In this document: one piece after another, positions 16,430 to 40,566 of the stretch
How the letters are laid out: the number at the start of each line of letters is the position of its first letter
Position numbering within the stretch: position 1 is the first letter of the stretch
Sequence record: PX969468.1
Length of the DNA stretch: 64,000 bases
Reading direction: 5' to 3' (one strand)
Source of the DNA: a phage
Position numbers and translations under genes: made by a program
The notes under the pieces: model-generated
The model's database searches: none
The model's input: only the letters and a program-made list of their open reading frames with translations
Told to the model about the DNA's origin: nothing

Positions 16430-17116
16430 ATGGCAGAGATTAAGTCGGATGTCAACCACATCCACACTCTGCCAGATTTTGTTCAGGGAGGTCTTGATTA
16501 CCTGCCTGGGGATTTTCTGGCTGAGAAGGTTAATTTAGTCACATTCTTAACCGTGTACCTTAAAAGGTTGGAGAATGTTGATAAAATACTGGTAGGCTTG
16601 GCTGAAGGAAGATTGCTTAACAATGCCAGCGGGAGATACCTTGACGAAGTTGGTAATCAACTTGGTATCCTTAGGAATGGTCTTTCAGACGCGGATTTTC
16701 GTGCTACGCTGATTATTCAGCAGGCAGCATCATCAAGAGGTGGTACTCGCGAAGATGTCATCTCCACCTTACGACAGTTGTTCGGAAGAGATAATTTCGA
16801 TACGTGGAAAGGTGACAATTTCAGGTTTGACATAAACATTAGAAAAACTTGCTTTGACATATTGCAGTCTATCGACCAGATCTTAGATATGCTGCCATTG
16901 CCTTGTCATTTGCGTCTTACGGAATCGCAAGGGCAAGCTTTTGGTTTTGAAGGGGACTCTGCAGCTCTCGGCTTCGGATCAGTGTGGGAAGAAAACCAGT
17001 TCGGGGTTGGTGGGTTGGCTACTTTGTTATATGTTCCTGACGTAAGACCTGATTGGGACACCACAACTATTTATTGTGAAAGTATTACAGTAAACGCAAC
17101 TAGACAGGAGGGTTAA
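16430..17116 (+). CDS. baseplate wedge component (DUF2612/gpI-like)
   Basis: follows baseplate J gene; motif GRYLDEVGNQLGILRNGLSDADFRATL resembling DUF2612 baseplate proteins. Confidence 0.4.
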   Translation: MAEIKSDVNHIHTLPDFVQGGLDYLPGDFLAEKVNLVTFLTVYLKRLENVDKILVGLAEGRLLNNASGRYLDEVGNQLGILRNGLSDADFRATLIIQQAASSRGGTREDVISTLRQLFGRDNFDTWKGDNFRFDINIRKTCFDILQSIDQILDMLPLPCHLRLTESQGQAFGFEGDSAALGFGSVWEENQFGVGGLATLLYVPDVRPDWDTTTIYCESITVNATRQEG

Positions 17117-19188
17117 TGGCAATAGCTGTTTTTAAACCTTACCGTGATTACTCTACAATGGCTGCACGGTTTCATTACCGCACAGTTCAAGATACTGCAG
17201 TTCCAGGTAGGGATTATGATCATGTTGAGGGTGATATAACTATTCCGGTTGGGGCAACCAGTATTGAGATTCCTGTAGAAATTGTTGACAAATTGCCAAA
17301 CAGGTTGCCAAGAAGCTTCTTTATGGAGTTTTCATCAAACTCCCAAGGGGTTATGATTGGAACACAAAGAGCGAAATGTACAATAGTTTCAGATGAGAAT
17401 CTTGACAGAATATCTTGGGATACCGTTGAGGAGAGAATGTTTCACCCAAGATACTGGGTTACAACCACACAGCAGACTGAAAGCACCTGTATTGTTGCGG
17501 ATAATAACTGCTGTATTAACCGTTTAGTGTCAAGAACATATGGAGGCATGGCTGGGTGCATTTGGGAAACAGTTGACAAGTATGACCATTTCGGTATTGG
17601 ATTTGATGATCACTACGAGATGAGAAACACCAAGCTTTGGTTCAGAATGTCAATAACCAATGCCAGCAACTTTTCCACCCCTGAAAAGATGATTATGACT
17701 GTAGACCTTGTTGATGGTACAATCATCTATGTTCCTTTAGCTCAATATGCTGTCAGCATCTCAGAGGATAAGAATGTTGCAGAAATTCATATTGATTTCG
17801 AGGACTGCGTCGGGATGGACCAGAACAACAACATGATGGGTGTTGATCCTCGGCAGGTGAGAAGGATTCTAATACCACTTATGCCTAAAGATTGGGTAGG
17901 TAATAGCACAGACCCGAGAACGGAAAATGTAGAGTGTGAGCTGCGTCTAGATCTGCTTCAGCCGGACACAGGCTGGAAAATGATGCAACTTAACAATATC
18001 CAGGTGAAAGAGCACGACGTCGGGATCTGCACAGCATATGACGATATGTGGAACGTATCCCCTTTAAGGGTGTTGAGCAATATCAAGCGCCTTGGCTATA
18101 CCGGAACCATAAATCATTATGTTGGTATGAGTCATTATTATGACTACACATGGTCAGGAACCCAATGGTCTATAAACAAAACAGGGGCTCTAAACGCTGC
18201 AGCTTATAAATGGCATGATGATTTTATGTACAATGCCAAACGACATGACTTCGACGTTATGCAGTCTGTAAGCTTTGAGCTTTATAGCGATGCCTGCCCG
18301 TTGGAATGGACCCAGAGAGACTGGAACGATAACTATGCTAAAACAGGCTATACGCCTTGTAGTTACCTCCTGTCTCCAACCATTGAAGAGGGTATGAATT
18401 TCCTTACTGCGGTATTTAAGAATTTTGCATCAGCCGCTATGAGAAACAACCTGCCAGTGATTATGCAGATTGGTGAACCGTGGTGGTGGTTCAATACCGA
18501 TACTCGTAAGCCTTGTATTTATGACTACCCTACAAAGCAGGCGTTTTATGATGAGACTGGTGAATATGCACTAGACATTGGGACTATTGACGATCCTAAA
18601 ACTGGCGGTGTTTATGACAAGTATGTAGCATTTTGTCGTGGTAAGCTTGGCGCTCGTATTGCAGCCATTTCAAAGGCAATAAAAGCACACGCTGCATCGG
18701 CTCAGATGACAGCTTTACTGTTTTTCCCCACTATTATGGAAACCGAGCTTACGCAAAAACTGAACCTTGCTGACCAATATAAAAAGGAAGCAGGTGCTCT
18801 TGATTTCTTCTGCACTGAGTGCTACGATTGGGTGATGCAGGGAGGTATTGAAAAGGCAAAAGAGTCTGTAAACATACCTATCGTTAAGTTAGGTTGGAAA
18901 CCGTCTGAAATACAATACCTTGCAGGGTTCGTTCCTAGCAAAGAGCTTGCTCCGGTATATGGCTACGACCCAACCAGGAATTACCAAGAATTTTTATGGA
19001 GATGTATTTGCGGAAACATGGCAACCATAGAGTATAGATACCCTGAGGTAAAACAGTATGTGTGGGCATACCCGCAAGTAATGTCTGACAGCATCACTGT
19101 TACCGCTAGAGATTCTACCGTGCTTCATATGGGGCAGGTTGCTCTGAAAGGGTATGTAGAAGATGTTGTCCCGCCAGACTTCTCATAA
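17116..19188 (+). CDS. structural protein with N-terminal Calx-beta-like domain; possible TIM-barrel glycosidase (candidate depolymerase)
   Basis: Calx-beta-like DTAVPGRDYDHVEGDITIPVGATSIEIPVEIVD; later QIGEPWWWFN and FFCTECYDW resemble glycoside hydrolase acid/nucleophile motifs; tentative. Confidence 0.3.
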   Translation: MAIAVFKPYRDYSTMAARFHYRTVQDTAVPGRDYDHVEGDITIPVGATSIEIPVEIVDKLPNRLPRSFFMEFSSNSQGVMIGTQRAKCTIVSDENLDRISWDTVEERMFHPRYWVTTTQQTESTCIVADNNCCINRLVSRTYGGMAGCIWETVDKYDHFGIGFDDHYEMRNTKLWFRMSITNASNFSTPEKMIMTVDLVDGTIIYVPLAQYAVSISEDKNVAEIHIDFEDCVGMDQNNNMMGVDPRQVRRILIPLMPKDWVGNSTDPRTENVECELRLDLLQPDTGWKMMQLNNIQVKEHDVGICTAYDDMWNVSPLRVLSNIKRLGYTGTINHYVGMSHYYDYTWSGTQWSINKTGALNAAAYKWHDDFMYNAKRHDFDVMQSVSFELYSDACPLEWTQRDWNDNYAKTGYTPCSYLLSPTIEEGMNFLTAVFKNFASAAMRNNLPVIMQIGEPWWWFNTDTRKPCIYDYPTKQAFYDETGEYALDIGTIDDPKTGGVYDKYVAFCRGKLGARIAAISKAIKAHAASAQMTALLFFPTIMETELTQKLNLADQYKKEAGALDFFCTECYDWVMQGGIEKAKESVNIPIVKLGWKPSEIQYLAGFVPSKELAPVYGYDPTRNYQEFLWRCICGNMATIEYRYPEVKQYVWAYPQVMSDSITVTARDSTVLHMGQVALKGYVEDVVPPDFS

Positions 19189-19200
19189 TCAGGAGATAAA

Positions 19201-20241
19201 ATGTCAAAACCTAGTTTTCCATTAGAGATTTGGGCAGAGGAGGATCAGGTTCTGCCTAACACCCACAGACAGAACAGGCTACGCCCGATTGATGATTTGT
19301 GGAGAAAAGGTTGGGATCTTGGTCAAAAGCCCTCATGTGAAGAACTTAACTATATTTTCAATATGCTCGGAACTTGGGCAAAATACATTGCTGACGAGCA
19401 GATCCCCGCTCAAGAAGGCCGTTATCTGGTACGCGATAATAACTTGAGTGATCTTTTGAACATCCCTGTTGCCCGTAGAAACCTTGGGATTATTACTAAG
19501 GAAGAGGCAGACGCCAGGTATGTAAAAGTTACAGGTGATACAATGACAGGCCCATTGGGTTTGCAACGTATCAACTTTAAAGCTGCCGAGACAGACAGGG
19601 CTTGGATAGAGACAACTATTGGCCCAGATAAGACAACTCTCGACTTTGGGTTAAGTGATAATATTGGGTCGTTTGATGATGGTGGTACATCTACAGTAGA
19701 TGCGTTTCGTTGGAGATTTCAGCCAACTCAGCCGGATATCAATCCGGAGTTCACTTTGATGTACCTTAACGCGATCACGGCTAACCGTGCGCTGTTGAAA
19801 GTGGTAGGCAATGTTGAAGTTGTCGATAACATGAGGTGCAATAACCTTACTATTAGCAATACAGCAACATTCACCAACTGTAATGTGGCTAGTCAGTTGA
19901 CGGCTGGGTCAGTGTATGTTAATGGTGGTACAAGTTGTGACAGTATGGTTGTAAGAAGTCAGCACTGTGTTGTCGGTAACAGAAATGTGGTGCGCTCTGT
20001 AAATGGAGTGACGGCTAACGGTAACGGTGATGTAACAATCACTATCCCGCAGACAGGTGTGCAAGACATCAGAATCGGTGCAAGACTTGTTGACGGCGTT
20101 TCCGAATCTCCAATTCGCAACGGCTACGTTGTCACAGGCTGGCATTTCGGTGACAAAAAAGAGATGCGTGGTTCAACCTACTGGGCAGGACCTTTACAAA
20201 AACTTGTAAATGGTCAATGGATCACTGTTAATTATGCATAG
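19201..20241 (+). CDS. tail fiber protein (short fiber, copy 1)
   Basis: classic tail-fiber motif ARRNLGIITKEEADARYVKVTGDTMTGPL; followed by Tfa chaperone gene; paralogue of 21253..22299. Confidence 0.7.
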   Translation: MSKPSFPLEIWAEEDQVLPNTHRQNRLRPIDDLWRKGWDLGQKPSCEELNYIFNMLGTWAKYIADEQIPAQEGRYLVRDNNLSDLLNIPVARRNLGIITKEEADARYVKVTGDTMTGPLGLQRINFKAAETDRAWIETTIGPDKTTLDFGLSDNIGSFDDGGTSTVDAFRWRFQPTQPDINPEFTLMYLNAITANRALLKVVGNVEVVDNMRCNNLTISNTATFTNCNVASQLTAGSVYVNGGTSCDSMVVRSQHCVVGNRNVVRSVNGVTANGNGDVTITIPQTGVQDIRIGARLVDGVSESPIRNGYVVTGWHFGDKKEMRGSTYWAGPLQKLVNGQWITVNYA

Positions 20242-20255
20242 ATCGGAGGACTAGC

Positions 20256-20840
20256 ATGAAAATACTTCAAGAGTTTAAACTTTACCAACCGGGATCTGGC
20301 GAATACCACGCCAACAAGGAAACCAAAGAGCTGACCCCTCAAGAGGTTGAGGATTACACCGCATACACTGGGTATTTTTTACGTAATGATGATGGCGATT
20401 GGTATGTGCAGTCACGAACATTACGACAAGAAAATCCGGGTTGTATCTTCCTACTTGTTGACGAGAAGGGAATTCTTAAGACATCTACAGAAGAGCCTGA
20501 TGCCTTATGGCCTGCTCCAGGTCTTCGTGTGGTTATCGCCAAAAAAGAAGAGGTACCAGAAAACATTATGCTTCACCACGACGCTTTGCGTTTAGTTGGT
20601 GATGAATTTGTCACAGATAATGAATTCTTTGTTCAACAGGCAGAGGGTGTCATAGAGACAGAACTTGCTTGGGCTACTGCTAGAATTGGTGCCTATCAAG
20701 ACATGATTGACCTTGAATATGATCTTACTGATGACCAGAAACGTAACATCAGAGATTTGAAAATGTACAGGGTAAAACTTCTTGAAATAGATACATCTAA
20801 AGCCCCTGACATTTTCTTCCCGGAGCGACCTACCCTCTAA
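20256..20840 (+). CDS. tail fiber assembly chaperone (Tfa family)
   Basis: C-terminal YRVKLLEIDTSKAPDIFFPERP matches conserved Tfa/Caudo_TAP C-terminus; immediately downstream of fiber gene. Confidence 0.7.
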   Translation: MKILQEFKLYQPGSGEYHANKETKELTPQEVEDYTAYTGYFLRNDDGDWYVQSRTLRQENPGCIFLLVDEKGILKTSTEEPDALWPAPGLRVVIAKKEEVPENIMLHHDALRLVGDEFVTDNEFFVQQAEGVIETELAWATARIGAYQDMIDLEYDLTDDQKRNIRDLKMYRVKLLEIDTSKAPDIFFPERPTL

Positions 20841-21252: not shown

Positions 21253-22299
21253 GTGATGACTAAACCAGTTATCCCTCTTGATATTTGGGCCAATCAGGAT
21301 GTTGTGCTTGAAAATACGGGAGAATTGAATAAGTCTCAACCAAAAAAAGAAGAGAGATTGAAAGGTTGGGATATGACACAAAGAGTGGCATGTGAAGTTG
21401 TTAACTTTGAACTTCACATGCTTTCTGCGTGGTTAAAGCATTTAACAGAAGATGTTGTCCCAGGATGGGATAATAGATTCTTAAGGGTCACTAATAATCT
21501 AGCAGACGTTCCAGACAAAGCTGCTGCACGTCAAGTTCTCAATGTATACTCGCCTGAAGAAATGGACGATCTGTATGTTGACAAGTCTGGAGACATAATG
21601 ACTCAGACTCAAACTTTAGGCCTTCAAAGAATCGAGTTTGCATCTGCGTCAACAGACAATGCGGCAATATATACCACCATAACCTCAGACAAGACGATGA
21701 TGGATTTCTGGATTATGGACAACATCGGTGGTGCTGACGGCACAGATCTTGATGATCCTTCTCACCAAATAGACGGGTTCCGTTGGAGATTTCAGCCTTC
21801 TGGTGGGCAGCCTGTGTTTTCGGCTATGAAGCTCAATGCTATAACTGCCAACCGTGCAAGACTGGCTATTCAAGGAAATCTTGAATGCAACGATGCAAAA
21901 AGTTCCTCTGCAAATGCCAATGCAGTTACTATACCAAGAGCCACTGTTAATGGTCAACAATCCTGTGGAAGCGCTCAAATAGGTGGAAGAGTTGATTGTA
22001 ACGATGAAACCGTCAGGGGCCAATATGCAACAGTTGGTGGAAGAAACGTGGTCCGTAGGGTAAATGGTAACAGCGCAGACGGTAGTGGTAACCTTACTAT
22101 TCCTATGCCTAGTAGGGGTGTTGAAGATGTAAGGATAGCAAACCGTTTCAGAACCACCTACAGAGAATCAAGAGTATACCCTGGGCATGTAATGTGCTCC
22201 GGCAATTACGCCTATAAACACCCGTATCAGGGCGACTATTGGACTGGAGCCATTCAAAAATTTGTAAATGGTCAATGGATCACTATATCTTATGCTTAA
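21253..22299 (+). CDS. tail fiber protein (short fiber, copy 2; paralogue of 19201..20241)
   Basis: alignable end to end with 19201..20241 (PLEIWAEEDQVL vs PLDIWANQDVVL; FRWRFQP; LNAITANRA; C-terminal KLVNGQWITVNYA vs KFVNGQWITISYA); central region diverged. Confidence 0.7.
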   Translation: MMTKPVIPLDIWANQDVVLENTGELNKSQPKKEERLKGWDMTQRVACEVVNFELHMLSAWLKHLTEDVVPGWDNRFLRVTNNLADVPDKAAARQVLNVYSPEEMDDLYVDKSGDIMTQTQTLGLQRIEFASASTDNAAIYTTITSDKTMMDFWIMDNIGGADGTDLDDPSHQIDGFRWRFQPSGGQPVFSAMKLNAITANRARLAIQGNLECNDAKSSSANANAVTIPRATVNGQQSCGSAQIGGRVDCNDETVRGQYATVGGRNVVRRVNGNSADGSGNLTIPMPSRGVEDVRIANRFRTTYRESRVYPGHVMCSGNYAYKHPYQGDYWTGAIQKFVNGQWITISYA

Positions 22300-22586: not shown

Positions 22587-24332
22587 ATGGCGCAAGACAT
22601 GACAAGCTTCGAGCAGGCGGTAGATCAAGTAATTGTTGATTCTGAACGTTTGCACTTGATTGTCAACGGTAACGCTGTGGATGAAGTTGTCGTAGAGGAT
22701 GGGACCACCATCCCTACGGTACGAAAAGCCATGCTTGACACCCTTTATTTTAAAACGCCACCAATCCCTTGGGCGTATGGTGCATCCACAACAGTTTTTA
22801 ACCAGTTGTATGAGTTTAAAGGGGATACAGGCACTCAGTGGTGGTATGCCCCAGCAGCATCAAAATCTAACCCGGTTAGGATGCCAGCAGATCCTTCACA
22901 ATCTCCGAACTGGAGATTATATACCGATTCTGCAGTAATGGCAAAATACTACGCAAAACTTAACAGTCCAAGGTTCGAAGGTGACCCGAGAGCACCTACA
23001 CCTCCAATGGACGATAAGTCCGAGTCTATAGCAAACACAGAGTTTGTTGTTGACTATGTGGATAGTATATTCAAAGCCATGGAGGGGATGAAAGTAACTG
23101 TAGGGTCTTTGGTAGTAAAAGGTCTTACAGAACTGGCTAACACCATAGTTGGTGGCACCCTTACCATACACGGGCCTGTTAATGGAGCGGATTCTACTGC
23201 ACGCTTCAGGAACCTAATCCTTACTGCAAATACTTCTACACTAACTTTTGCGTGGAGCGATCCTAAGCATGCCGACTGGAGAAGCACAGAGCTGCAACCT
23301 CATGAAGTATCCACCCACAGAGTTATAGCCGACACTATAACCTCTGGGAAACCAGTGGCTAATAACAACGATGTGCATTTTGACGGTCTAGGTAATAACT
23401 TTTTTGACTACGTGTACATTCGTGGTAATGCCATGAAGGCAGCAACCGAACCGACATTGCAGGTCGATGGGACCACTAGGGTTAAGAACCTTGAGGTGAC
23501 AGGTACCGTTACAGGGATAACCTACTCTGTCGATGGCACCATGATCTACCCTAGCTATATTGAAAGCACGGGTGACGCATTAATAAATGGTGATTTGGAG
23601 GTTGGCGGGTCTGTAGTTATTCGAGGTACGGCCTCTATCCAAAACATAGCTCTGAATACTCTCAGAGTCAATGAGCGTGCAACTTTTGAAGGAGAAGGGC
23701 TTACAGCCAACAAAGGTGTAATTACCGAGCTGACAACCACCACTTTAACTGCAACAACTGCAAACTCTGAAAACTGCAACGTTACCAGAAACTTGCAGGT
23801 AAATGGGGATGTTAGTTTAAACGCAGCAGGTACGGGCACCACCTACCTTCACAACCTTGAAATATCCGGCACAGTGACTGGTTGGCTGCCAGACTTCTCT
23901 AATGTCAACTTTGTCTGTAATGGTATTAACTCTAGTGGTAAGATAACCACCTCTCAAGAAATTGAGGCTGGTAAAACCATCACTGCCCCTACTTTCCACG
24001 CAGGGAAGGTAGATTTCGATTTAGAGGAGGTTGACGCGTCCAGTGGGACATGGACACCTAACGGGCAGGCCAGTATGTATGTTGTCCACGCTAAAGGGGA
24101 TTTTACAATAGGCCAATGGCCTGGAACATCGGCTGAAGATAAACCTTACCCGTTTACTGCAATCATCTATGTCATTCAAGATGCCGTAGGCCACAACGTG
24201 ACTTTGCACGATAAATATGCCATACTGTCGGCTACCCCTGTTATTAACAACAAAGCCAACAGCGTCACCTTGCTACAATTGACATATTGTGGTGTTGGTG
24301 ATATCGTAGATGTGGTTATTGCACAACGTTAA
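22587..24332 (+). CDS. tail fiber/tailspike-like protein
   Basis: 581 aa, Thr/Gly/Asn-rich beta-rich repeats (VTGTVTGITYSVDG; LTATTANSENCNVTRNLQVNGDVSLN); RBS; terminator downstream. Confidence 0.4.
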   Translation: MAQDMTSFEQAVDQVIVDSERLHLIVNGNAVDEVVVEDGTTIPTVRKAMLDTLYFKTPPIPWAYGASTTVFNQLYEFKGDTGTQWWYAPAASKSNPVRMPADPSQSPNWRLYTDSAVMAKYYAKLNSPRFEGDPRAPTPPMDDKSESIANTEFVVDYVDSIFKAMEGMKVTVGSLVVKGLTELANTIVGGTLTIHGPVNGADSTARFRNLILTANTSTLTFAWSDPKHADWRSTELQPHEVSTHRVIADTITSGKPVANNNDVHFDGLGNNFFDYVYIRGNAMKAATEPTLQVDGTTRVKNLEVTGTVTGITYSVDGTMIYPSYIESTGDALINGDLEVGGSVVIRGTASIQNIALNTLRVNERATFEGEGLTANKGVITELTTTTLTATTANSENCNVTRNLQVNGDVSLNAAGTGTTYLHNLEISGTVTGWLPDFSNVNFVCNGINSSGKITTSQEIEAGKTITAPTFHAGKVDFDLEEVDASSGTWTPNGQASMYVVHAKGDFTIGQWPGTSAEDKPYPFTAIIYVIQDAVGHNVTLHDKYAILSATPVINNKANSVTLLQLTYCGVGDIVDVVIAQR

Positions 24333-24341
24333 TATATCTGA

Positions 24342-24366
24342 CCGCTCCTGACGGGGCGGTTTTCTT
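24342..24366 (+). terminator. rho-independent terminator
   Basis: ccgctcc-tgac-ggggcgg followed by ttttctt. Confidence 0.6.
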
Positions 24367-24380
24367 ATCTGGAGAACACA

Positions 24381-27300
24381 ATGCTTCCAATCCCTTTGCT
24401 AAAACTTGGTCGTCATTTCCTCGATAAGAGGGGTGGAGTTAAGGAACTTGCTGTTCTGTCATACCCAATAGACAACAGTGACGGTACAAGCACTACAGTG
24501 CCATATGTAAATAGCTTAGCCATACTTTTTGACGACGGTCAACTCAATATTACAGGTTACAACAGGTTCGGGGAGTGCAGGACTGGAGATCTTGACACGA
24601 TAAACTACCCAAATGAGGCTGCCTGGAACGTTGATCATGTGTGGAGAGCAGACCGTGCGTTTGTGATCCGAACTTTTGATAATCAGTTTTTCTACATCGG
24701 CTGCACTGCAGGGCTTATTGGATCTGATGCTGCAGGTGGTAATGATGTTTGTGTAAGGGAGTGGACACCTCTTCCTGAACAGATTGTTAAAGGGTTGCAC
24801 CTTGACACCCACCCGGAGCGCCTTGTTGAGGTGATGGGTGGTATTAACAACACTGTCTGGGTTATTGCAGAGGCAGAAGGCACAGGCATACTGAATCTGT
24901 ATGGGTCTGGTAACAACACCTACGGATCTTTGCATGTAGATAAAAATCAGCATGCAACCCCTGTAAAGATCGGTGAGACATCGGAAAATCCTGAAACAGG
25001 CCCTTGGAAAAACCCAAGCATTAACTGCGAGGTGCATGACAACTCTGTTATTTTCGGTGGTCCTAGAGGTTTCTGGATTGCTGGATACGACTTTCTGAGA
25101 AATAACAGTAGAAACGACCTTGTTTGGCCTCCTGTGCAGATTACTCGTAACGATTTGAGAGGCATTCCTGCAGATGAGGAGTGGAAAGGGTTTATGTGTG
25201 GTCCTAACGGGGCAATAATTGCCACACAGAGGATGCACAAACCTAATGACCAGCAGCTTGTTAACGTATTCTACGGGCAAGACGTCTGGGGAGATGACAC
25301 ATGGCGTTCCTTAAATATCACCTACACCCATGAGGTGATAATGGCTCGTGGATACGGCACAAGTGGCATTTTCTTCAATAATGGCACTAAGCAGTATCGT
25401 GGGTTCTCTCGCAACTTGTGTAATGATATTGGTGCACAATCTGCAAACAATAGCCCTAGGGCCAATTTTATCCACTATCAAGCTCTTGCTACAGCTAAAT
25501 ATGTTGAGCAACGCCTGCCAGTTAGCTGGACAGAGAGTGTTTATTTCCAAGGCATCCACAGAGAAGGTTTCTTAGGGACCTTTACTGTTGTTAATGGTAA
25601 ACTTTGGTGGTCAGGCATCCCGAGGGGAAGTTTTGCAGGATCTAACAACCTGTTTGGCGGCAGACTTAATAGTCAGGGGTTCACAGAGGTTCCTGAGAAT
25701 TGGTATAAAAATGTCCCAGTAGACAGTTGGGGTGTTGATGATATTTTCGATGTTAACGGTGTTAGCAGCGTTAGCAATATCTACATTGGTGACACGGTCA
25801 AGATGAAACTGAAGCCTCAGCCAGAGGGGGCTACGTTCATTATTGACAAAATTGAACTGGTAAATGCTGCAGGCACGGTTGTTACAGATGCAAATTACCA
25901 ATTCTCCACCAACTGGAACCACGGTGGGGCCAACGAAGTTGTTGTTACCCAATATAACAGAAATGTTAACAGACGTGGACTGTACTCTGTAAAAATAACC
26001 TATCATGACAAACATGGCACAGGCAGAACCCACACAACAAGGACTTTGAACTGGAACACTATCGTCCCAGCGTACCCGTCTGATGGTAAATGGCATACTG
26101 TCGGTAGAAACAAACAGTTCCATGTCAACGATACTGTATACTTTGGGTTGAATGCCGCCCAGCCTGCAGTAGAAGGGGATACATCGTATATGGTCAGACT
26201 CCATAGAATGGATGCTGGATCAGTAACTTATGATGTTACTCAAGAGATTTATAATCAGCGACGAAATACCTATGATAACTTGGTGCAGACACAGGCCTTA
26301 TGGGAGTTCAACCCAAACGGCAGAGGTGGTAAAATGTTGCAGGTCAATGAACAAAACTGGACATCGTTGACTGTTCACGAACACCAAAACCCTTGGCCTG
26401 ATCCTGGAAAACCTAACTCTGGTGCTCGTACACTGAAAATTGTCAGCCATGATGTAGGGTATTTCGGAATACGCTGGGAAGCTACAGTAAGATATGCTGA
26501 TGGGACAACAAACAACATAGGGATCACTCTTGGTGGCACTAGTGAGGATAACTCACTGAAAATTGCCTACACCCCTAGAGGCATCTCTATTGACAATATG
26601 GATGTTGTTCGCAACGGTTACGGCGATGTGAATGTCAAAGTTACTCTTGGCGAACATCTTGGTGGGGAAAGGATCATCATGTATGCCTTTGATCATGACC
26701 CTCGCACCAATGGAACCTATGCAGACCAAGCATGGAGTTACCTGATAAGCGCACCTGAGCCAAATACTAAAGAATTCTACTATGGTATGAAGCGAGATGT
26801 GTGCAAGAAAACAGGAACACATGACTGGATTGCTATCTGCGTTAAAGATGAGCGCACAGCTTGGGATGAGCCTGTTAACAGATGGTTCATAGGTATTCCT
26901 ACCAGAAGTGATAAGTATGTCGCAGAGTATATTGTATGCATGGGCGGTACCAACCTGAACATGTGTTGGAACGAAGATGTAAACAAATACTCTGATTATG
27001 ACTATATGAGGGATTACTCTTGCAATCTGTGGTTTAACCAAACTACAGGTTACCCTCCGCGTCAGGCAAGGGTAAATCCTGCAATCTTTACAGATACTCA
27101 GGTTTTCTTGACAAAACAGGCCAACGAGGTTCAGACCTTCAAGAATAAATACGATCCTAACAAGTGGTTCTACAACTGTTACGGCGCATTTTTCTGGGGC
27201 CCTGGTGAGTTACCTGGTGGAGGATCTTGCTTGAATGAGGCAACTTACGCCAGTGACTACATCATGGGGCAGGTCAAGAAGTATAAGATAATTCCCGGTC

Positions 27301-30008
27301 CTGAAACTCTGGGTAATGCCGTTGACCCTTATATCATCATGACTGCACTGAGATCCAACATGGACGGGACATCCATGTCTATGCAAATTCCGGTAACAAA
27401 CGGGTACAAACGTGTTGTGATGATCATTAAGTGCGACTTAATAGGTAAACAAGTTCTTGCAGAAAACGGGACATCCACACATCCTTTTGAGGTTGCTCTG
27501 CACTATCAGTTTGCTGACTCACCTTTTGCAGGCGATAAGAGAATATCTGATACAGATGCACAGCGTTGTAAGAAAGTATTGTTGGGTGCAGGTTGGTGGT
27601 GGTATGAGTTTGATTTAACAGACAAATTCACCGACACGTCTAAAGTTGTAACAGGACTTCGTCTAGACCTTGGTGAGAACATGCACAAAGCTGTTTGTGA
27701 TGGCACCTATGGTGACCCTACAATATACCTAAAATATATTTCTTTTGAGCATCCGGAAGATGTTGTCTACGGTCCAAAACTGAGATTGTTTGGCAGTTGG
27801 ATTGCAAAAGATAGGGTAGGGATGGGTAAGAAGGTGAGAGGGTTCTTGGTTGATGCAGGAACAGAAGACATGCTGGTTAATGCAGTATGGCCTGAATTAC
27901 CCGGGACTCAGTGGAACAACTCAGCCAAATCTATAAACTGGTTTAACATTCATAGAGCCATGTGGACCACCAACTGCTACTTGTGGAGAGAGCTTAACGA
28001 TCAGGCCTTTGGCTTCAGCGATGGTAGAAGGATGGCGATCATTTGCTGGACAACACTGCAAAGATGTTATGACCATGACTACGAGATTGGGGGCAGGGCA
28101 TGGAAAAATATCAGGGACAGAATCATAACCAATTTTGCAGACGACAACGGTGGTGGAGCACATAACTTTGGCACAAGCCGACTCATCCATTTGAACGGAT
28201 CCTCAGCCTACAAGAAAGAAGGTTACTCTGGGTCTATGATCGAGTGGGGTCTGGTGAAAGATGCTCGCGTATTGATGGGCCAGCAACTTGCTGCCGCAAT
28301 AGGTCCCAGCGCAGTGCAGTCGGTTAAACCAGCGTGGTTCGATATTCCAATATGGTCATCTGGAACACCAGGAACTGCTGCAATCAATCCTACTACCGGG
28401 GATCTGGAAATCTCTTGGGAGGACTTGAAGCAGGTTGGGGGCTGGGATAAGACAGGGTACCAGGTGCAATGGTGGAGGTCTGACGGATCGTTAGCTGCTG
28501 ATGAGTTTGTTAAGGACAACTTCTACACCATGCCCTCTGCAAAAGCACAACAACTGTTCGGTCAGTCTACCCCGTCAACGATCACCATGTCCATGTGCTG
28601 TAAAGACAACAGGACTGGAGCTTTGGGCCCAAGGGTTGCTAAAGTTTTCTCAGGTATCAAATGGAATCTTCCTGTTCAAAGTGTTGCATGGAAGCAAATA
28701 GGCGATAACAAGCTGCTAGTTACCCCAGCTTGTCAGTTCAACGCAACTCTTAACGTTGATCCTGCTGTTGCGGCAAACTCAGCTAAAGCTTCTGACTTCT
28801 CTGTGTCTAACACTGCCATGGCAGATGTGAGGAAGATTGACACGCTGAACGCCAGAATTACCTGTAAAAACACTTATGGCACATTTCAGATCATCAACAA
28901 CTTCACAGACGCGGATTCTAAGGTAGTGAGGACAGCAAGCCAGACTCTGAGTTTAGGAACTCTGGCCTATGCGGCCCTGATCACTGAACAGTCAGCAACA
29001 CTCCAAGGGGGTGGTGTAGGCAAGTCCATTACAACACCTGTGTGGAAGCCAAATGAGTGGGTTGTGTTTGATTTGACCGTGGACTTCTCCAGCGATAATA
29101 ACTGGACATGGGTAAGGAATTGCTTGTCACAACTGATGGGTGGTCCAAGCTCCGTTAGTGATAGCCACTACTCCACTGACCCGAGTGTGTTTCAGGTGGG
29201 TAAAACTCACCCGGAGACTGGAGCAACGTTGCCTGACAGGAAGTATGCTTTGGTTTGCATCTCTTACGGGAAGGCAGATGTCACCTTCTCAGGGACACAC
29301 ACTTATAACGGAACCTACAACTTCTCAAGGAAGTATAGTCTCAAAGCAGGGAACATTATAGACGAGGTTGGTGTGCTGTATAATCCTGGCAACGGCATAG
29401 GGATTGTGGGCGGTAAACTGCAGATGCAGGAACCTTCTATTACCCCTTCCAACGTATCCGGGATTAGAAAGACTTGGGAAAGTAGTAATACCAACATTGC
29501 AACAGTGGATGCCACCACAGGGCTGGTAACATTTAAAGCTACTGGGAATGTCACCATAAAGTTTGTAGTTACAGATGATGCAGGCCGCAAAACGTCTTCA
29601 ACATCGTTTACTGTCAGACAGATGGCACCTCAGTGGTTTATTTGGGAAGGAAATCCTCTTGACGGGGCTTACCCTAGACCTGCAGGAACGTCCAATATGA
29701 GGGTCTTTACCGGTCCGGTCATGAACAATCCGACCACAACCACCAACCCTACATTTTTTGGTGCTTACATACCTGAAATTATTGGCCTACCAAGGAACCA
29801 GATACAACTGCTTTTCGGAGCAGGTGTTGATGGTCTAGCCACTTTTGGGTACAGTGACAACATTGATGCAGCCAGAAGCTCGGGTTGGATTGGATTTAAG
29901 TTTCAGTGGAACCCTGGTGGTAGAACATTAGGTGTTGCAAGCATAGGTGTTATGCTACCTGGTGACCAGCAATACCATCTCGAAGCTTATACAAACTTCC
30001 CTAGTTAA
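24381..30008 (+). CDS. giant (1875 aa) virion-associated protein with N-terminal RCC1/beta-propeller-like repeats and C-terminal Big_2 Ig-like domain
   Basis: GSGNNTYGSLHV-type RCC1-like repeats near N-terminus; Big_2-like segment SNVSGIRKTWESSNTNIATVDATTGLVTFKATGNVTIKFVVTDDAGRKTSSTSFTV near C-terminus; last gene of rightward structural block. Confidence 0.5.
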   Translation: MLPIPLLKLGRHFLDKRGGVKELAVLSYPIDNSDGTSTTVPYVNSLAILFDDGQLNITGYNRFGECRTGDLDTINYPNEAAWNVDHVWRADRAFVIRTFDNQFFYIGCTAGLIGSDAAGGNDVCVREWTPLPEQIVKGLHLDTHPERLVEVMGGINNTVWVIAEAEGTGILNLYGSGNNTYGSLHVDKNQHATPVKIGETSENPETGPWKNPSINCEVHDNSVIFGGPRGFWIAGYDFLRNNSRNDLVWPPVQITRNDLRGIPADEEWKGFMCGPNGAIIATQRMHKPNDQQLVNVFYGQDVWGDDTWRSLNITYTHEVIMARGYGTSGIFFNNGTKQYRGFSRNLCNDIGAQSANNSPRANFIHYQALATAKYVEQRLPVSWTESVYFQGIHREGFLGTFTVVNGKLWWSGIPRGSFAGSNNLFGGRLNSQGFTEVPENWYKNVPVDSWGVDDIFDVNGVSSVSNIYIGDTVKMKLKPQPEGATFIIDKIELVNAAGTVVTDANYQFSTNWNHGGANEVVVTQYNRNVNRRGLYSVKITYHDKHGTGRTHTTRTLNWNTIVPAYPSDGKWHTVGRNKQFHVNDTVYFGLNAAQPAVEGDTSYMVRLHRMDAGSVTYDVTQEIYNQRRNTYDNLVQTQALWEFNPNGRGGKMLQVNEQNWTSLTVHEHQNPWPDPGKPNSGARTLKIVSHDVGYFGIRWEATVRYADGTTNNIGITLGGTSEDNSLKIAYTPRGISIDNMDVVRNGYGDVNVKVTLGEHLGGERIIMYAFDHDPRTNGTYADQAWSYLISAPEPNTKEFYYGMKRDVCKKTGTHDWIAICVKDERTAWDEPVNRWFIGIPTRSDKYVAEYIVCMGGTNLNMCWNEDVNKYSDYDYMRDYSCNLWFNQTTGYPPRQARVNPAIFTDTQVFLTKQANEVQTFKNKYDPNKWFYNCYGAFFWGPGELPGGGSCLNEATYASDYIMGQVKKYKIIPGPETLGNAVDPYIIMTALRSNMDGTSMSMQIPVTNGYKRVVMIIKCDLIGKQVLAENGTSTHPFEVALHYQFADSPFAGDKRISDTDAQRCKKVLLGAGWWWYEFDLTDKFTDTSKVVTGLRLDLGENMHKAVCDGTYGDPTIYLKYISFEHPEDVVYGPKLRLFGSWIAKDRVGMGKKVRGFLVDAGTEDMLVNAVWPELPGTQWNNSAKSINWFNIHRAMWTTNCYLWRELNDQAFGFSDGRRMAIICWTTLQRCYDHDYEIGGRAWKNIRDRIITNFADDNGGGAHNFGTSRLIHLNGSSAYKKEGYSGSMIEWGLVKDARVLMGQQLAAAIGPSAVQSVKPAWFDIPIWSSGTPGTAAINPTTGDLEISWEDLKQVGGWDKTGYQVQWWRSDGSLAADEFVKDNFYTMPSAKAQQLFGQSTPSTITMSMCCKDNRTGALGPRVAKVFSGIKWNLPVQSVAWKQIGDNKLLVTPACQFNATLNVDPAVAANSAKASDFSVSNTAMADVRKIDTLNARITCKNTYGTFQIINNFTDADSKVVRTASQTLSLGTLAYAALITEQSATLQGGGVGKSITTPVWKPNEWVVFDLTVDFSSDNNWTWVRNCLSQLMGGPSSVSDSHYSTDPSVFQVGKTHPETGATLPDRKYALVCISYGKADVTFSGTHTYNGTYNFSRKYSLKAGNIIDEVGVLYNPGNGIGIVGGKLQMQEPSITPSNVSGIRKTWESSNTNIATVDATTGLVTFKATGNVTIKFVVTDDAGRKTSSTSFTVRQMAPQWFIWEGNPLDGAYPRPAGTSNMRVFTGPVMNNPTTTTNPTFFGAYIPEIIGLPRNQIQLLFGAGVDGLATFGYSDNIDAARSSGWIGFKFQWNPGGRTLGVASIGVMLPGDQQYHLEAYTNFPS

Positions 30009-30020
30009 CAGGAGGCAAAT

Positions 30021-30050
30021 AAAAAGGGGGCCAGACGGCCCCTTTCTTTT
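30021..30050. terminator. bidirectional rho-independent terminator between convergent gene blocks
   Basis: aaaaaggggcc-agac-ggcccctttcttttt: GC stem flanked by A-run and T-run. Confidence 0.65.
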
Positions 30051-34263: not shown

Positions 34264-35757
34264 TTACTTAGCGTACTCGATTAATTCCACAGTTTTCCCA
34301 AAGCTCGGAATATAATTTTTATTATACCCTTCGGTGAGAACCCATAGAGTATCGTACTTTTTCCACTTGTTGTCAACAGCCTTTTGTTCAAAGTTATGCT
34401 CAAAGTATAGGTCGGTCAGGACGATGACATCTTTTGCATTCGGTATGTTAGCATCCAGATACTCGAACACGCAAGCAGCTGTTGTGCCCCATGTTGAGTG
34501 GACCTCATAGTTGATCATCTCGTCTATGTTGCCGCGAGTGTATACTTTAACCTCTCCAACCTCAGTTGACCAACAGAACATTGTAACCTTAAACTCTTTA
34601 TACAGATTGCACAATCCTGTGATTTCATTGAACATTTTCTTTAAAGTTCTTTGAGAGATCGAGCCAGAAACGTCCAAAGCCACCACAATATCTATAGTGT
34701 TTTCCGGATTACGACCAGGAACAATAACGTGTTGGTTCTTGTTTATAGCTCCGACTTTTCGCATTGTGCTGGTCAAAGACCCAGATCGGCGACCAGGTTT
34801 TCTGTAGGTCAGTTCGGCCTTTCTTTTAGACAACATACGCTGCTTGATGATGTCTATATAATTGATTACAGGCTTACCTCTATTCTTGACAAACTCACGA
34901 ACCGCCTCAGGGCAACGACCTCCGGAAGCTTGCATTGCTGCCTCAAGCATGTCACCAGAGTCCTGCATGGCCTGATCTTTATCAGATTGGCTGATTACAG
35001 GTTGTGGCTGATCATACCCCATCGCCTTTCCAAGATCATCACTAGTGCCACCGTTACCACTCATGTGATCGTCGGTTTGTCGTTTATCTCCTTGAGAGTT
35101 CTCGCCTTTACCGTTCTTACTTTTACCGCTATTCTGATCTCTTTGCTTATCAAGAACCGCATAGACGTTCTCAGCAATCCATCCATGGAACCTCATGTCA
35201 CAGTAGCAACTAGCTAAGAAGCCAAAAGACTTACCTTTTACAAACGTAGTGCTTTTCCCCTTCGGGAAGAAAACACAAGGGGGCTTGCTAAAGTCAACCA
35301 CAAGACCTGTGTTGATAACATGATCACAGGCAATATTGAACAGCTCCGGCTCAAAACTTTTGCCACGGACCAGATGATCACAGATAATATGCCCCACCTC
35401 ATGCGATAGAAGAAATGCCACCTCTTTCACAGATTTTGGGGAATAGAAAACCTCAGCCATCTCAAACTGCTTGTCAGTCAAAGATGCTTTAAGAATGGTT
35501 TTGCGCTCATCCGCCAATCCCATAATGAACTCAGGGCTGTAATAAATGCGTTTATGGTCTGTTGCCATGGTGGAGCACCATGTGTGGTTTTCTACGAACT
35601 GCAACCCTGACAACAGTGTGCCATAAAACGGCAGTTTTTCAAGAAGATACATACGTGCTGCCTGCAGCATTCGCAAGGCGTCATCTTTTTGTGCGGCAAT
35701 GATTTCTGAACTTCTGCTATCCATTAAAACTCCAGAAGGGGCCTTGGCCCCTGTCAT
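34264..35757 (-). CDS. VWA-domain protein with N-terminal putative zinc-metallopeptidase domain (DUF2201-like; MoxR-partner type)
   Basis: HExxH motif (LSHEVGHIICDH); VWA MIDAS motif (IVVALDVSGSIS) and later VIVLTD; TAATG coupling to upstream gene. Confidence 0.65.
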   Translation of the reverse strand: MTGAKAPSGVLMDSRSSEIIAAQKDDALRMLQAARMYLLEKLPFYGTLLSGLQFVENHTWCSTMATDHKRIYYSPEFIMGLADERKTILKASLTDKQFEMAEVFYSPKSVKEVAFLLSHEVGHIICDHLVRGKSFEPELFNIACDHVINTGLVVDFSKPPCVFFPKGKSTTFVKGKSFGFLASCYCDMRFHGWIAENVYAVLDKQRDQNSGKSKNGKGENSQGDKRQTDDHMSGNGGTSDDLGKAMGYDQPQPVISQSDKDQAMQDSGDMLEAAMQASGGRCPEAVREFVKNRGKPVINYIDIIKQRMLSKRKAELTYRKPGRRSGSLTSTMRKVGAINKNQHVIVPGRNPENTIDIVVALDVSGSISQRTLKKMFNEITGLCNLYKEFKVTMFCWSTEVGEVKVYTRGNIDEMINYEVHSTWGTTAACVFEYLDANIPNAKDVIVLTDLYFEHNFEQKAVDNKWKKYDTLWVLTEGYNKNYIPSFGKTVELIEYAK

Positions 35758-36809
35758 TATTTAACGTGCTTGAAAATACCAGCCAACTCGGTCATTGTCA
35801 TGCGGGTGGTCTTCATAAGGTCTGTCATAGCCTTCTCCATAATTGGAGATACTACCATAAAGTTACCTTTGGTGAAACCTTTATTCCAATCGGTCACTAA
35901 TAGTGGTTTAAGTCCGGTCCCGAGACGCTCACCAGTTAAAGCACAACATTTTCGAATATACGTGCTCTTAAACTGACTGAATGACAGATCAACTTTCATA
36001 CCTGCATCGTAGAACGTCTGGCAATAGAAAGTGTAAGCTTTGGCAATCTCAACATCGTCAGGCAGTGCAGGAACCTCTTCTGTAAGCTCTTCTTCGGCCT
36101 CTTGAGGCTCTTTTTCCTCTTCGTGATCCTGTTGCATCATTTCTTCAATCTCTTCTGTTACAGGCTCATTTACGATGTCAGAAATGTGCTTGTTGGCTCC
36201 ACGATTAGCCATGAAGTTTTTAAAATCCTGCATTGGTGACATATCTTCCTCCCATTCTTCGTCAAAGAGTGCTAGTTTATCCTCTTCCGTTCCATATTGC
36301 AAGATGAAATCTTCAAAAGTGTAATCACCTTTCAATTTCTCCATACGCTCTTCGCTCAGGTGGAGCATCATCTGCTGGACAATTTTTCGATCAGTTTTGT
36401 CTTTAATCAAGACTGCGGTCTTTTTATCTACCAGACAGTCCTTTAGAGAGTTGCATCTCAATCCCACCACACAACAATTATCAACAGCATAAGGACCTTC
36501 ATCATCTATCCGCTCTAGGGAGGGGTAGAAAGGATTTCCCAGTCCGTTTTCATCTGTGTGCATGTCGAAAGGTATAAGGGTATAGTCGCACACCCCCTCT
36601 CCTAAAAGTTTTTTACCAAATAGGAGGTATTCTTCCCATGACAGGTTGAACTCTATATCTCGTTTCCGTGCATTATTTTGTTTGCGTCTGTATTTTTTGA
36701 GCAAGCGCTCTAACTCTTCTGGTGTATAATATTTTTCAAGATTCATGAGTTGTCTCTCGTGCTCTGTAAGTGAAGAAATCTTATCAATTGTCTCAACAGA
36801 TGTCAACAT
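35757..36809 (-). CDS. acidic hypothetical protein with two copies of an HNH_3-like motif (Arg in place of first His)
   Basis: PSLERIDDEGPYAVDNCCVVGLRCNSLK and PLLVTDWNKGFTKGNFMVV; long Glu-rich linker; first gene of leftward block. Confidence 0.4.
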   Translation of the reverse strand: MLTSVETIDKISSLTEHERQLMNLEKYYTPEELERLLKKYRRKQNNARKRDIEFNLSWEEYLLFGKKLLGEGVCDYTLIPFDMHTDENGLGNPFYPSLERIDDEGPYAVDNCCVVGLRCNSLKDCLVDKKTAVLIKDKTDRKIVQQMMLHLSEERMEKLKGDYTFEDFILQYGTEEDKLALFDEEWEEDMSPMQDFKNFMANRGANKHISDIVNEPVTEEIEEMMQQDHEEEKEPQEAEEELTEEVPALPDDVEIAKAYTFYCQTFYDAGMKVDLSFSQFKSTYIRKCCALTGERLGTGLKPLLVTDWNKGFTKGNFMVVSPIMEKAMTDLMKTTRMTMTELAGIFKHVK

Positions 36810-36819
36810 CAAAAACGTG

Positions 36820-39079: not shown

Positions 39080-39382
39080 GTGGCAAGGATGCCACTTAAA
39101 AGAGTAATAAACATGTTATACCAGAAACACGAACTTTGTGCAGAAAAAGAGTTAAATTTTGACAAAGTTATCCACAGATATTGTTATGGAAAAACCGGAA
39201 GACAACTAAGAAGATGCACTCCAGCATTCTTTCACCCCAGCAGGCGGCTAAGTCCTGAAGAGGCGACAGCAGAAAGGGTTGCATACAACTGGGAAGTTGT
39301 GTACGATATTGACAGATCCGATGTGACATCTGTTTTGGAAAACTTTGAAAACACTTACACACAAGTAGAGGATTTTTACTAA
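39080..39382 (+). CDS. hypothetical protein
   Basis: 100-aa ORF. Confidence 0.3.
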   Translation: MARMPLKRVINMLYQKHELCAEKELNFDKVIHRYCYGKTGRQLRRCTPAFFHPSRRLSPEEATAERVAYNWEVVYDIDRSDVTSVLENFENTYTQVEDFY

Positions 39383-40566
39383 TGTCAAGAAACGTATTTG
39401 AAAGTGGTCAAATCACTGTCCGTGAGTTGCCAGCTATCATTCAGTTTGCCCAGCGTCATAACCGATCTGTCCTGATTTTAGGACCAATGGGTGTGGGAAA
39501 GAGTCAGGTGATGAAGCAGATCGCTGATAATATGTTCGGTGAGCGAGATGACAACCTGGTTGACGTGCGGCTGTCAGATAAAGATCCTGCCGACTTATCT
39601 GGGCTACCTATCCCTGTAGAAGCTGATGGAACTACACGTACAGTGTTTGCAATTCCAGAATTTTGGCCTGCAGATCCGAACTGGAGCGGAATTATCTTTC
39701 TGGATGAGCTTACTCATGCAGATAACTATCTGCAAAAGGTTGCAATGCAGATTATGCTCGACCACAAGTGCGGCACCTATGCATTCCCTAAAGGCTCTGT
39801 TTTTGTGGCTGCGGGTAACCGTTCTACAGATGGTGCTGTTCTTTCGGCGCTCGAAGCTCCTCTGGCTAACCGCTTTATCATTGTAGAGGTTACAAGCAAT
39901 GCAGAGGTGTTTATTGAGGACTACGCATTCCTCAACGGGGTTCACTCCTCTGTAATTGGGTATCTGAAAAGAGTTCCATCAGCTATTGATAATTATGAGG
40001 CTATGGCTGAGATTAATTGTCCATCTTTTGCCACACCACGATCTTGGGTTGCTGCATCTGACATCTTGCACGATTTTGACAGCGGTATTATTTCTGACGC
40101 TATGGCCCGTGTTCTTCTGCAAGGTGCTATTGGTCACACTGCAGCGGTAGAGATCTGGACCTACCACACCAAGAAACGCAACTTACCGGAAATCGGTCGG
40201 ATTATGGCAGGGGGTTGCAAAGAATACGTAGGTCCTAAACAGCCAGACATCTTGTGGATTCTTGGATCTGAAGGTTGTATCGCTATTCGTAATATGATGG
40301 AAAATGCAAGTATCTCCGACGAAGATCTTGTTAGCTGTGTGGCAAACTTCCTCGATTTCCTTTGGGAAAACTTCAAGGACGAGAACCGAGATTTTGTATT
40401 CTCAGTCTTTATGGCGATGATGAAACCTAATGCCTTAGGAAATGCCTTGCTTATCGGTAAAGGTCGTGACAAGATTGTTGCTCAGCTGATCAAAGCATAC
40501 CCAAACCTGATGAAGATTGTAAAAGAGTTTGGTGAAGAGTTTAGCGCCATTTTGGCTAAAGCTTAA
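39382..40566 (+). CDS. AAA+ ATPase, MoxR/RavA-like
   Basis: Walker A LILGPMGVGKSQ, Walker B IIFLDELTHA; size and layout of MoxR-class ATPases; VWA partner at 34264..35757. Confidence 0.7.
   Translation: MSRNVFESGQITVRELPAIIQFAQRHNRSVLILGPMGVGKSQVMKQIADNMFGERDDNLVDVRLSDKDPADLSGLPIPVEADGTTRTVFAIPEFWPADPNWSGIIFLDELTHADNYLQKVAMQIMLDHKCGTYAFPKGSVFVAAGNRSTDGAVLSALEAPLANRFIIVEVTSNAEVFIEDYAFLNGVHSSVIGYLKRVPSAIDNYEAMAEINCPSFATPRSWVAASDILHDFDSGIISDAMARVLLQGAIGHTAAVEIWTYHTKKRNLPEIGRIMAGGCKEYVGPKQPDILWILGSEGCIAIRNMMENASISDEDLVSCVANFLDFLWENFKDENRDFVFSVFMAMMKPNALGNALLIGKGRDKIVAQLIKAYPNLMKIVKEFGEEFSAILAKA

Follow-up and report, generated by a model that had tools for sequence, protein, structure and literature searches.

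A 1,875-residue protein with a probable diverged RCC1-like N-terminus at the end of the tail-fibre block of a Vequintavirus: a candidate accessory adhesin

Gene position and flanking signals

The window analysed here, a 64,000-nt stretch of the phage sequence record PX969468.1, carries at positions 24381-30008 of the + strand an ATG-started open reading frame (ORF) of 1,875 amino acids (aa), with a predicted mass of 208.4 kDa, an isoelectric point of 6.3 and a composition rich in G, T, N and W. By its sequence, the window belongs to an rV5-like myophage of the genus Vequintavirus. Since an open frame of 5.6 kb does not arise by chance, and since the product matches the family phrog_15684 over its full length, the ORF is a real gene; a GGAG Shine-Dalgarno motif (24371-24374) is located 6 nt 5′ of the ATG. 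The signals flanking the gene are as follows.

24279-24307, + strand: promoter-like site, TTGACA-17-TATCGT with TG upstream, just 5′ of the giant ORF
24340-24361, + strand: terminator-like hairpin separating the giant ORF from the 581-aa fibre gene that precedes it, GACCGCTCC-TGAC-GGGGCGGTT followed by a T-run
30024-30045, both strands: bidirectional intrinsic terminator, AAAAAGGGGGCC-AGAC-GGCCCCTTTCTTTTT, with a 9-bp, GC-rich stem enclosed by an A-run and a T-run

The first-pass annotation had described the ORF as the largest in the window, as closing the structural block and as being followed by a bidirectional terminator, and it was right on all three points. The next largest ORFs encode 1,279 and 1,266 aa. 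The gene is the final + strand member of the baseplate and tail-fibre block, the ORFs beyond it lie on the - strand, and the sign of the GC skew flips at about 30 kb, 3′ of the ORF. The hairpin at 30024-30045, which closes convergent transcription units, obtained a terminator score on either strand, and a bidirectional rho-independent terminator is annotated at the homologous position in the rV5 GenBank record. On the basis of PHROG matches, the + strand block upstream of the gene encodes a baseplate wedge, a baseplate protein, short tail fibres, a fibre chaperone and glycosidase-type fibres.

A terminator is also annotated in the record of phage Alma at the position matching the 24340-24361 hairpin, which may reduce read-through into the giant gene. 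Taken together, the promoter-like site and the hairpin (24279-24361) could keep the giant protein at low expression.

Orthologs and family

The gene was 95.4% identical in DNA and 97.9% identical in protein to bas59_0040 of Escherichia phage EduardKellenberger (Bas59, Vequintavirus), and its product is the ortholog of rV5 ORF27/gp27 (ABI79098; 1,878 aa) and of bas54_0041 of phage MaxBurger (Bas54; 94.2% aa identity). The match to phrog_15684, a family without assigned function, runs from end to end (4,422 bits, aa 1-1874 against profile positions 1-1877 of 1,878). Full-length orthologs with 92-98% aa identity were present in about 110 records of rV5-like phages. Both full-length collinearity and the last position in the fibre block, with the convergent terminator, place the protein in the phrog_15684/rV5 gp27 orthologous group; compared with rV5 gp27 and the BASEL orthologs, which share the locus and the flanking terminator, its differences are allelic only. 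The orthologs are annotated as "hypothetical protein", "Ig-like domain-containing protein" or, in BASEL, "lateral tail fiber protein with intimin domain".

The family is narrow, comprising 15 clusters at 90% identity and reaching down to 40% identity. Even its most divergent member, the 40%-identical metagenomic one, is encoded in the same position of a fully syntenic, Vequintavirus-like contig. The gene has thus already been sequenced and annotated as part of the rV5 gp27 family, without experimental characterisation; new here are the hypothesis of an RCC1-like docking module, the domain resembling a carbohydrate-binding module (CBM), the existence of two tip alleles, the naturally occurring knockouts and the finding of strong purifying selection.

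As a separate observation, some 15 GenBank records of the MG0656xx series, labelled 'Campylobacter phage' with host C. jejuni, carry the Vequintavirus gene at full length with about 93% aa identity. These records are probably mislabelled or represent contaminant genomes.

Domain organisation

Structural models of the two halves of the protein were obtained with AlphaFold2 (AF2) from shallow alignments of 16-17 sequences, with a mean predicted local distance difference test (pLDDT) value of 50 for the N-terminal half and 55 for aa 761-1875. Combined with profile searches, they suggest the following organisation.

24381-24974, + strand: aa 1-198, N-terminal module, the sole part common to other proteins (hhalign 99.8%) and the proposed virion-docking module
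24438-25700, + strand: aa ~20-440, likely a diverged RCC1-like beta-propeller, the most conserved part of the family, with low AF2 confidence
25725-26660, + strand: aa ~449-760, about three Ig-like beta-sandwiches in a moderate-confidence model
26661-27260, + strand: aa 761-960, orphan region without detectable homologs or a confident model
27273-27755, + strand: aa ~965-1125, CBM-like beta-jelly-roll in a confident model (pLDDT 70-85)
27756-28370, + strand: aa 1126-1330, mainly helical region in a low-confidence model
28374-29360, + strand: aa ~1332-1660, FN3/Ig-like beta-sandwiches (model pLDDT 60-88)
29424-29579, + strand: aa 1682-1733, Big_2 domain (PF02368; Pfam 33.5 bits against a cut-off of 22.8; model pLDDT 80-93)
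29631-30005, + strand: aa 1751-1875, C-terminal tip of 125 aa, present in Vequintavirus genomes as two alleles that recombination exchanges

The first-pass annotation had also placed RCC1-like repeats at the N-terminus, a claim that failed by direct profile search and stood indirectly, through homology to a group of RCC1-bearing proteins and a weak structural model. Queried with the whole protein, the Pfam RCC1 families (PF00415, PF13540 and PF25390) gave no match at E≤1; the fragment aa 1-450 matched RCC1_2 at 13.7 bits (E 0.058), which is below threshold, and the homologs P0003 and P0010 of the same family matched PF25390 at E ~1e-3, far under its 150-bit cut-off. With aa 1-1200 as query, an exhaustive phmmer search of 1.84 billion representatives retrieved only six clusters from outside the family (P0020-P0026, 391-891 aa), which have aa ~1-198 in common with the giant protein. 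The proteins of this group match PF00415 at 22-36 bits (cut-off 21.7), PF25390 at E 1e-9 to 1e-12, and phrog_4219, 'regulator of chromosome condensation', at E 7.5e-34. When the two groups were aligned by hhalign, aa 1-198 of the window family matched the P0020-P0026 group with 99.8% probability (E 2.7e-30), and aa 393-440 were collinear with positions 360-405 of that group (E 1e-5). Both ends of the ~440-aa domain thus have a counterpart, and divergence is confined to its middle. The giant protein is thus homologous to proteins that pass the RCC1 family threshold.

About seven x-G-x-N/D-x-x-G repeats were discerned by eye within aa 45-430, near aa 59, 107, 175, 235, 299, 341 and 412. In hhalign self-comparison the seven repeats were not significant for the family of the giant protein (best off-diagonal E 0.15), and the P0020-P0026 proteins gave only a weak repeat signal (E 0.004-0.06). 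The AF2 model of the N-terminal half was of low confidence, and its part covering aa 235-435 was unusable for recognition of a propeller fold. A word-index homolog search with the N-terminal 460 aa returned essentially fragments of the protein itself. On transitive homology and the weak structural model, aa ~1-440 likely comprise a conserved N-terminal peptide of about 16 aa (M-[LF]-P-[IF]-P) and a diverged RCC1-like propeller. The most likely role of such a propeller would be that of a platform for protein-protein docking.

For the central part of the protein, relatives were scarce: in the phmmer search against the 1.84 billion representatives, aa 200-1200 had none outside the family. The jelly-roll fold of aa ~965-1125 resembles characterised CBMs, and the same fragment had no match among the Pfam CBM families at E≤10. 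A weak homology was found between aa 1218-1419 (28032-28637) and phi92 gp153 and phrog_32204 'tail protein' (E 9e-6, 25% identity; E 1.3e-3). Within the following beta-sandwich region, the FN3/Ig-like domains of the model span aa ~1332-1425, ~1510-1570 and ~1590-1660, and aa 1450-1600 are the most divergent stretch of the family.

The C-terminal Ig-like Big_2 domain named in the first-pass annotation was recovered above the Pfam gathering threshold. Searched as a single sequence against the PDB, the protein matched only intimin and Sap Ig domains, over the same ~50 residues as Big_2, and searches with a 16-sequence profile gave Ig-like matches or none. The "intimin domain" of the BASEL annotation derives from this resemblance of Big_2 to the intimin Ig domain.

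Downstream of Big_2, the model places a beta-rich domain at aa 1770-1875 with moderate confidence. Two alleles of the tip were distinguished among 114 records: the allele of the window (at least 95% identity) in 38, and the rV5 allele (60-80%, about 63% identical) in the other 76. Phage YN3 is about 100% identical to the window through aa 1750 and 50-74% identical thereafter, which indicates that the tip is exchanged by recombination. The tip was found in no genes other than those of this family, and a word-index search with the C-terminal 125 aa again returned essentially self-fragments. Across the family, conservation is highest in aa 1-450 and lowest in aa 1450-1875. Tail receptor-binding proteins show this same polarity, with conservation at the N-terminus and variation and exchange at the C-terminus.

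Dispensability and selection

In the HIDEN-SEQ transposon study, the ortholog bas54_0041 tolerates disruptive insertions (bioRxiv 10.1101/2025.11.20.689424), and the gene is therefore dispensable for infection of K-12 and for making infectious virions. Natural alleles point in the same direction. Two phages isolated on K-12 MG1655 carry amber codons in the gene, i.e. nomine (MN850649; W82, TGG to TAG, window equivalent 24624-24626) and magaca (MN850612; Y617, TAT to TAG, window equivalent 26229-26231); the orthologs of Alma, JES2013 and EI-SP-GF have frameshifting deletions, and those of ime, V18 and APECc02 are annotated in pieces. Some of the ortholog indels may be sequencing errors. The two ambers and the three frameshift alleles are consistent with dispensability on K-12.

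Intact copies had a ratio of nonsynonymous to synonymous substitution rates (dN/dS) of 0.04-0.07 over the whole length, so that the protein is functional in nature and under strong purifying selection. A gene that is constrained in nature and lost without penalty on laboratory K-12 displays the pattern expected of a factor for host range or environmental adhesion. Primary receptor binding on K-12 falls to the deacetylase-domain fibre (window 17116-19188), which recognises the N4 glycan receptor (NGR)/enterobacterial common antigen (ECA) glycan, and the terminal receptor is the lipopolysaccharide core, reached via the short fibres (PMC8594841; bioRxiv 10.64898/2026.04.02.716166; PMC7229145). 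According to HIDEN-SEQ, differing fibre genes are conditionally essential on clinical isolates, the genes being unnamed in the text (bioRxiv 10.1101/2025.11.20.689424).

Proposed function and alternatives

Of the possible roles suggested in the first-pass annotation, i.e. a giant adhesin, a decoration protein or a fibre, that of a tail-associated accessory adhesin or side fibre is favoured and that of a capsid decoration disfavoured. The tail-associated reading is favoured by the position of the gene, the N-terminal module shared with 'tail proteins', the variable C-terminal tip and the CBM- and Ig-like folds. On balance we lean towards the giant protein being an accessory adhesin or side fibre, carried by the virion at low copy number and attaching to surface glycans, its location and ligand both being predictions from sequence and models. 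The conserved N-terminal peptide and the RCC1-like propeller would dock the protein, probably in few copies, to the baseplate periphery or to another fibre. From there, the Ig/FN3 domains, arranged as beads on a string, would form a flexible stalk projecting the CBM-like domain, the Ig-like domains and the tip outward. Judging from the folds and the variation, the CBM-like domain, the Big_2 and other Ig-like domains and the dimorphic tip may bind host or environmental glycans weakly and reversibly, and such binding would raise adsorption or extend the host range beyond K-12, outside the trigger for contraction.

Weak evidence of its presence in the virion comes from rV5, where multidimensional protein identification technology (MudPIT) assigned to locus 27 three peptides and nine spectra with 3.1% coverage (PMC3606486 Table S5). 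Several observations weigh against the proposed role. The rV5 peptides rank poorly and are semi- or non-tryptic, and in the same table similar scores were obtained for two rV5 proteins that are probably non-structural (PMC3606486 Table S5). Electron cryomicroscopy (cryo-EM) of Bas49 and Bas54 found three of the nine annotated fibres near the baseplate (PMC12143355), the 2026 structure of phi92 leaves gp152 and gp153 unplaced, and in the literature on phi92, phiTE, Bas49/Bas54, W70 and CB7 no paper places the homolog of the giant protein. Neither a trimerisation element (beta-helix, triple beta-helix or long coiled coil) in the AF2 models nor a Peptidase_S74 or chaperone domain in Pfam was found, and the next gene lies on the opposite strand, leaving no downstream chaperone; the protein may therefore not be a canonical 'fibre' and, on this weak negative evidence, may be monomeric, unlike canonical fibres. 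Furthermore, the docking role of the N-terminus is read from the conservation pattern alone, and aa 235-435, 761-960 and 1126-1330 are poorly modelled and could hide an enzyme.

This last point leads to the alternative of a virion-borne depolymerase, in which a novel catalytic domain would reside in aa 761-960 or 1126-1330 and the CBM-like and Ig-like domains would act as targeting modules. No enzyme fold or family was found in the giant protein by Pfam, PDB, PHROG or model comparison, and we regard a depolymerase as unlikely, if compatible with an accessory adhesin.

A somewhat less probable alternative is a decoration protein of the capsid or neck, resembling T4 Hoc or T5 pb10 and displaying on the head an Ig array that adheres to mucus or glycans. 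Decoration proteins of the Hoc type typically bear Ig-like (Big_2) domains, the head and packaging category of PHROG contains phrog_215 ('structural protein with Ig domain'), the BFVD matches include Hoc and Ig-bearing major head proteins, the gene is dispensable as is Hoc, and no fibre density near the baseplate has been assigned to the giant protein. However, the matches to head proteins reflect a generic fold only, and decoration in rV5 is already served by a dedicated and abundant protein, gp61. In every relative examined, the giant gene comes last in the baseplate and tail-fibre operon, a long way from the head genes, near which a Hoc-like protein would be expected to be encoded. PHROG labels as 'tail protein' the families to which the N-terminal homologs belong, and the conserved-N, variable-C polarity is again that of tail receptor-binding proteins.

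Least probable of all is a non-virion late protein, cell-associated or released as a decoy or lysis-time adhesin, with the mass-spectrometric (MS) peptides as contaminants: although the MS signal is very weak and matched by non-structural proteins in the rV5 dataset, infective virions do not need the gene and a terminator-like hairpin parts it from the fibre operon, the gene is co-oriented and tightly packed with structural genes, its N-terminal module is specific to same-locus proteins of related phages labelled 'tail protein' in PHROG, a signal peptide or transmembrane segment was not evident at the N-terminus on inspection, and RCC1-annotated proteins are bona fide components of W70 virions (PMC11370258).

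Returning to the accessory adhesin, a broader and more doubtful proposal is that the window protein and its Phapecoctavirus and Seunavirus counterparts represent a class of non-trimeric appendages, each a single polypeptide docked to the baseplate periphery by an RCC1-like propeller and the conserved N-terminal peptide, here with a glycan-binding arm of over 1,400 aa and an exchangeable tip. If so, the three trimeric fibres seen by cryo-EM would be joined by a fourth device for adsorption, needed conditionally on some hosts, which symmetric reconstructions would have overlooked because it is flexible and sub-stoichiometric. Phages of the rV5 type are broad-host-range candidates for therapy and biocontrol with a partly assigned "Swiss-army-knife" set of fibres, and the giant protein is their largest. 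With its docking module, CBM-like domain and two tip alleles, it offers a tractable target and possibly a scaffold for host-range engineering.

Other genes in the window

Two paralogous short tail fibre genes (19201-20241 and 21253-22299, both phrog_4465) surround a tail-fibre assembly chaperone gene (20256-20840, phrog_136), in a layout like that of Mu gpS/gpU which has already been described for Vequintavirinae. The 690-aa deacetylase-domain fibre (17116-19188, + strand) is matched at aa 285-344 by phrog_15324 ('tail sheath and receptor binding protein', N4 gp65-like), which also matches aa 119-293 of phi92 gp153. This double match points to small modules having been shuffled among the fibre genes of the supergroup.

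On the - strand, the adjacent genes 34264-35757 and 35757-36812 are 'HNH endonuclease' in PHROG (phrog_1314 and phrog_3118), as against 'putative metallopeptidase' and 'anti-sigma factor' in BASEL, and a homolog of this pair carries Pfam DUF2201_N/DUF2201. A gene for a MoxR-type ATPase lies near the pair (39382-40566). Its Bas54 ortholog is bas54_0063, an anti-defence gene in the HIDEN-SEQ preprint (bioRxiv 10.1101/2025.11.20.689424).

Comparison with known systems

The closest counterparts outside the family are the phrog_11922 'tail proteins', such as Phapecoctavirus ukendt gp231 (890 aa), Seunavirus 4MG_038 (567 aa) and the P0020-P0026 group, which likewise are encoded at the end of the fibre block. 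These proteins, present also in Cronobacter, Salmonella and Klebsiella relatives, have the N-terminal peptide and RCC1-like propeller homologous to aa 1-198 of the window protein at 30-46% identity, as well as a homologous last propeller blade followed by Ig-like domains, as in the window protein. Unlike the window protein, they are only 390-890 aa long and bear clear Pfam signatures of RCC1 and of two Big_2 domains, and their distal parts (e.g. DUF285/BspA-like repeats) are unrelated to it, the window protein having about 1,400 extra residues without counterpart.

In phi92, gp152 (NC_023693 21321-21929) is located at the same locus and retains the first 16 aa and two Big_2 domains of the Phapecoctavirus-type protein, with the entire RCC1-like propeller deleted. 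The weakly homologous counterpart of window aa 1218-1419, gp153 (NC_023693 22096-22983), is a separate ORF without a ribosome-binding site. As gp152 and gp153 are two halves of one 655-aa 'tail protein' family, phrog_32204, the pair looks, from its sequence, like a decaying gene. A likeness of LL12 gp27 to the N-terminus of the phi92 colanidase gp150 (PMC7229145) was not reproduced by tblastn at E≤10, where links to gp152 and gp153 were found instead.

Among RCC1-type proteins, W70_237-239 of phage W70 (Septuagintavirus, Vequintavirinae) are virion components annotated as RCC1-type 'chromosome condensation' proteins, which have been interpreted as DNA-packaging helpers (PMC11370258). Given the RCC1-like module at the tail locus, they may instead be external appendage or adaptor proteins. 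Compared with RCC1, RCC2, the RCC1-like domain (RLD) of HERC2, UVR8 and Kti13, the probable propeller of the window protein has a sequence signal under the Pfam thresholds. To our knowledge, there is no reason to expect of it a Ran guanine-nucleotide exchange factor (GEF) function.

Intimin/invasin and Lig-type adhesins differ from the window protein, which is without LysM, a beta-barrel anchor and a C-type-lectin tip; a strict intimin-like adhesin was rejected, the likeness being confined to about 50 aa of Big_2, a ubiquitous fold. With the N4 gp65 sheath, T4 Hoc, the C-terminal domain of lambda gpV and the R4C 'Megatron', the window protein is without sequence homology, and it differs from these Ig-array phage adhesins both in its presumed attachment module, an RCC1-like propeller, and in its locus.

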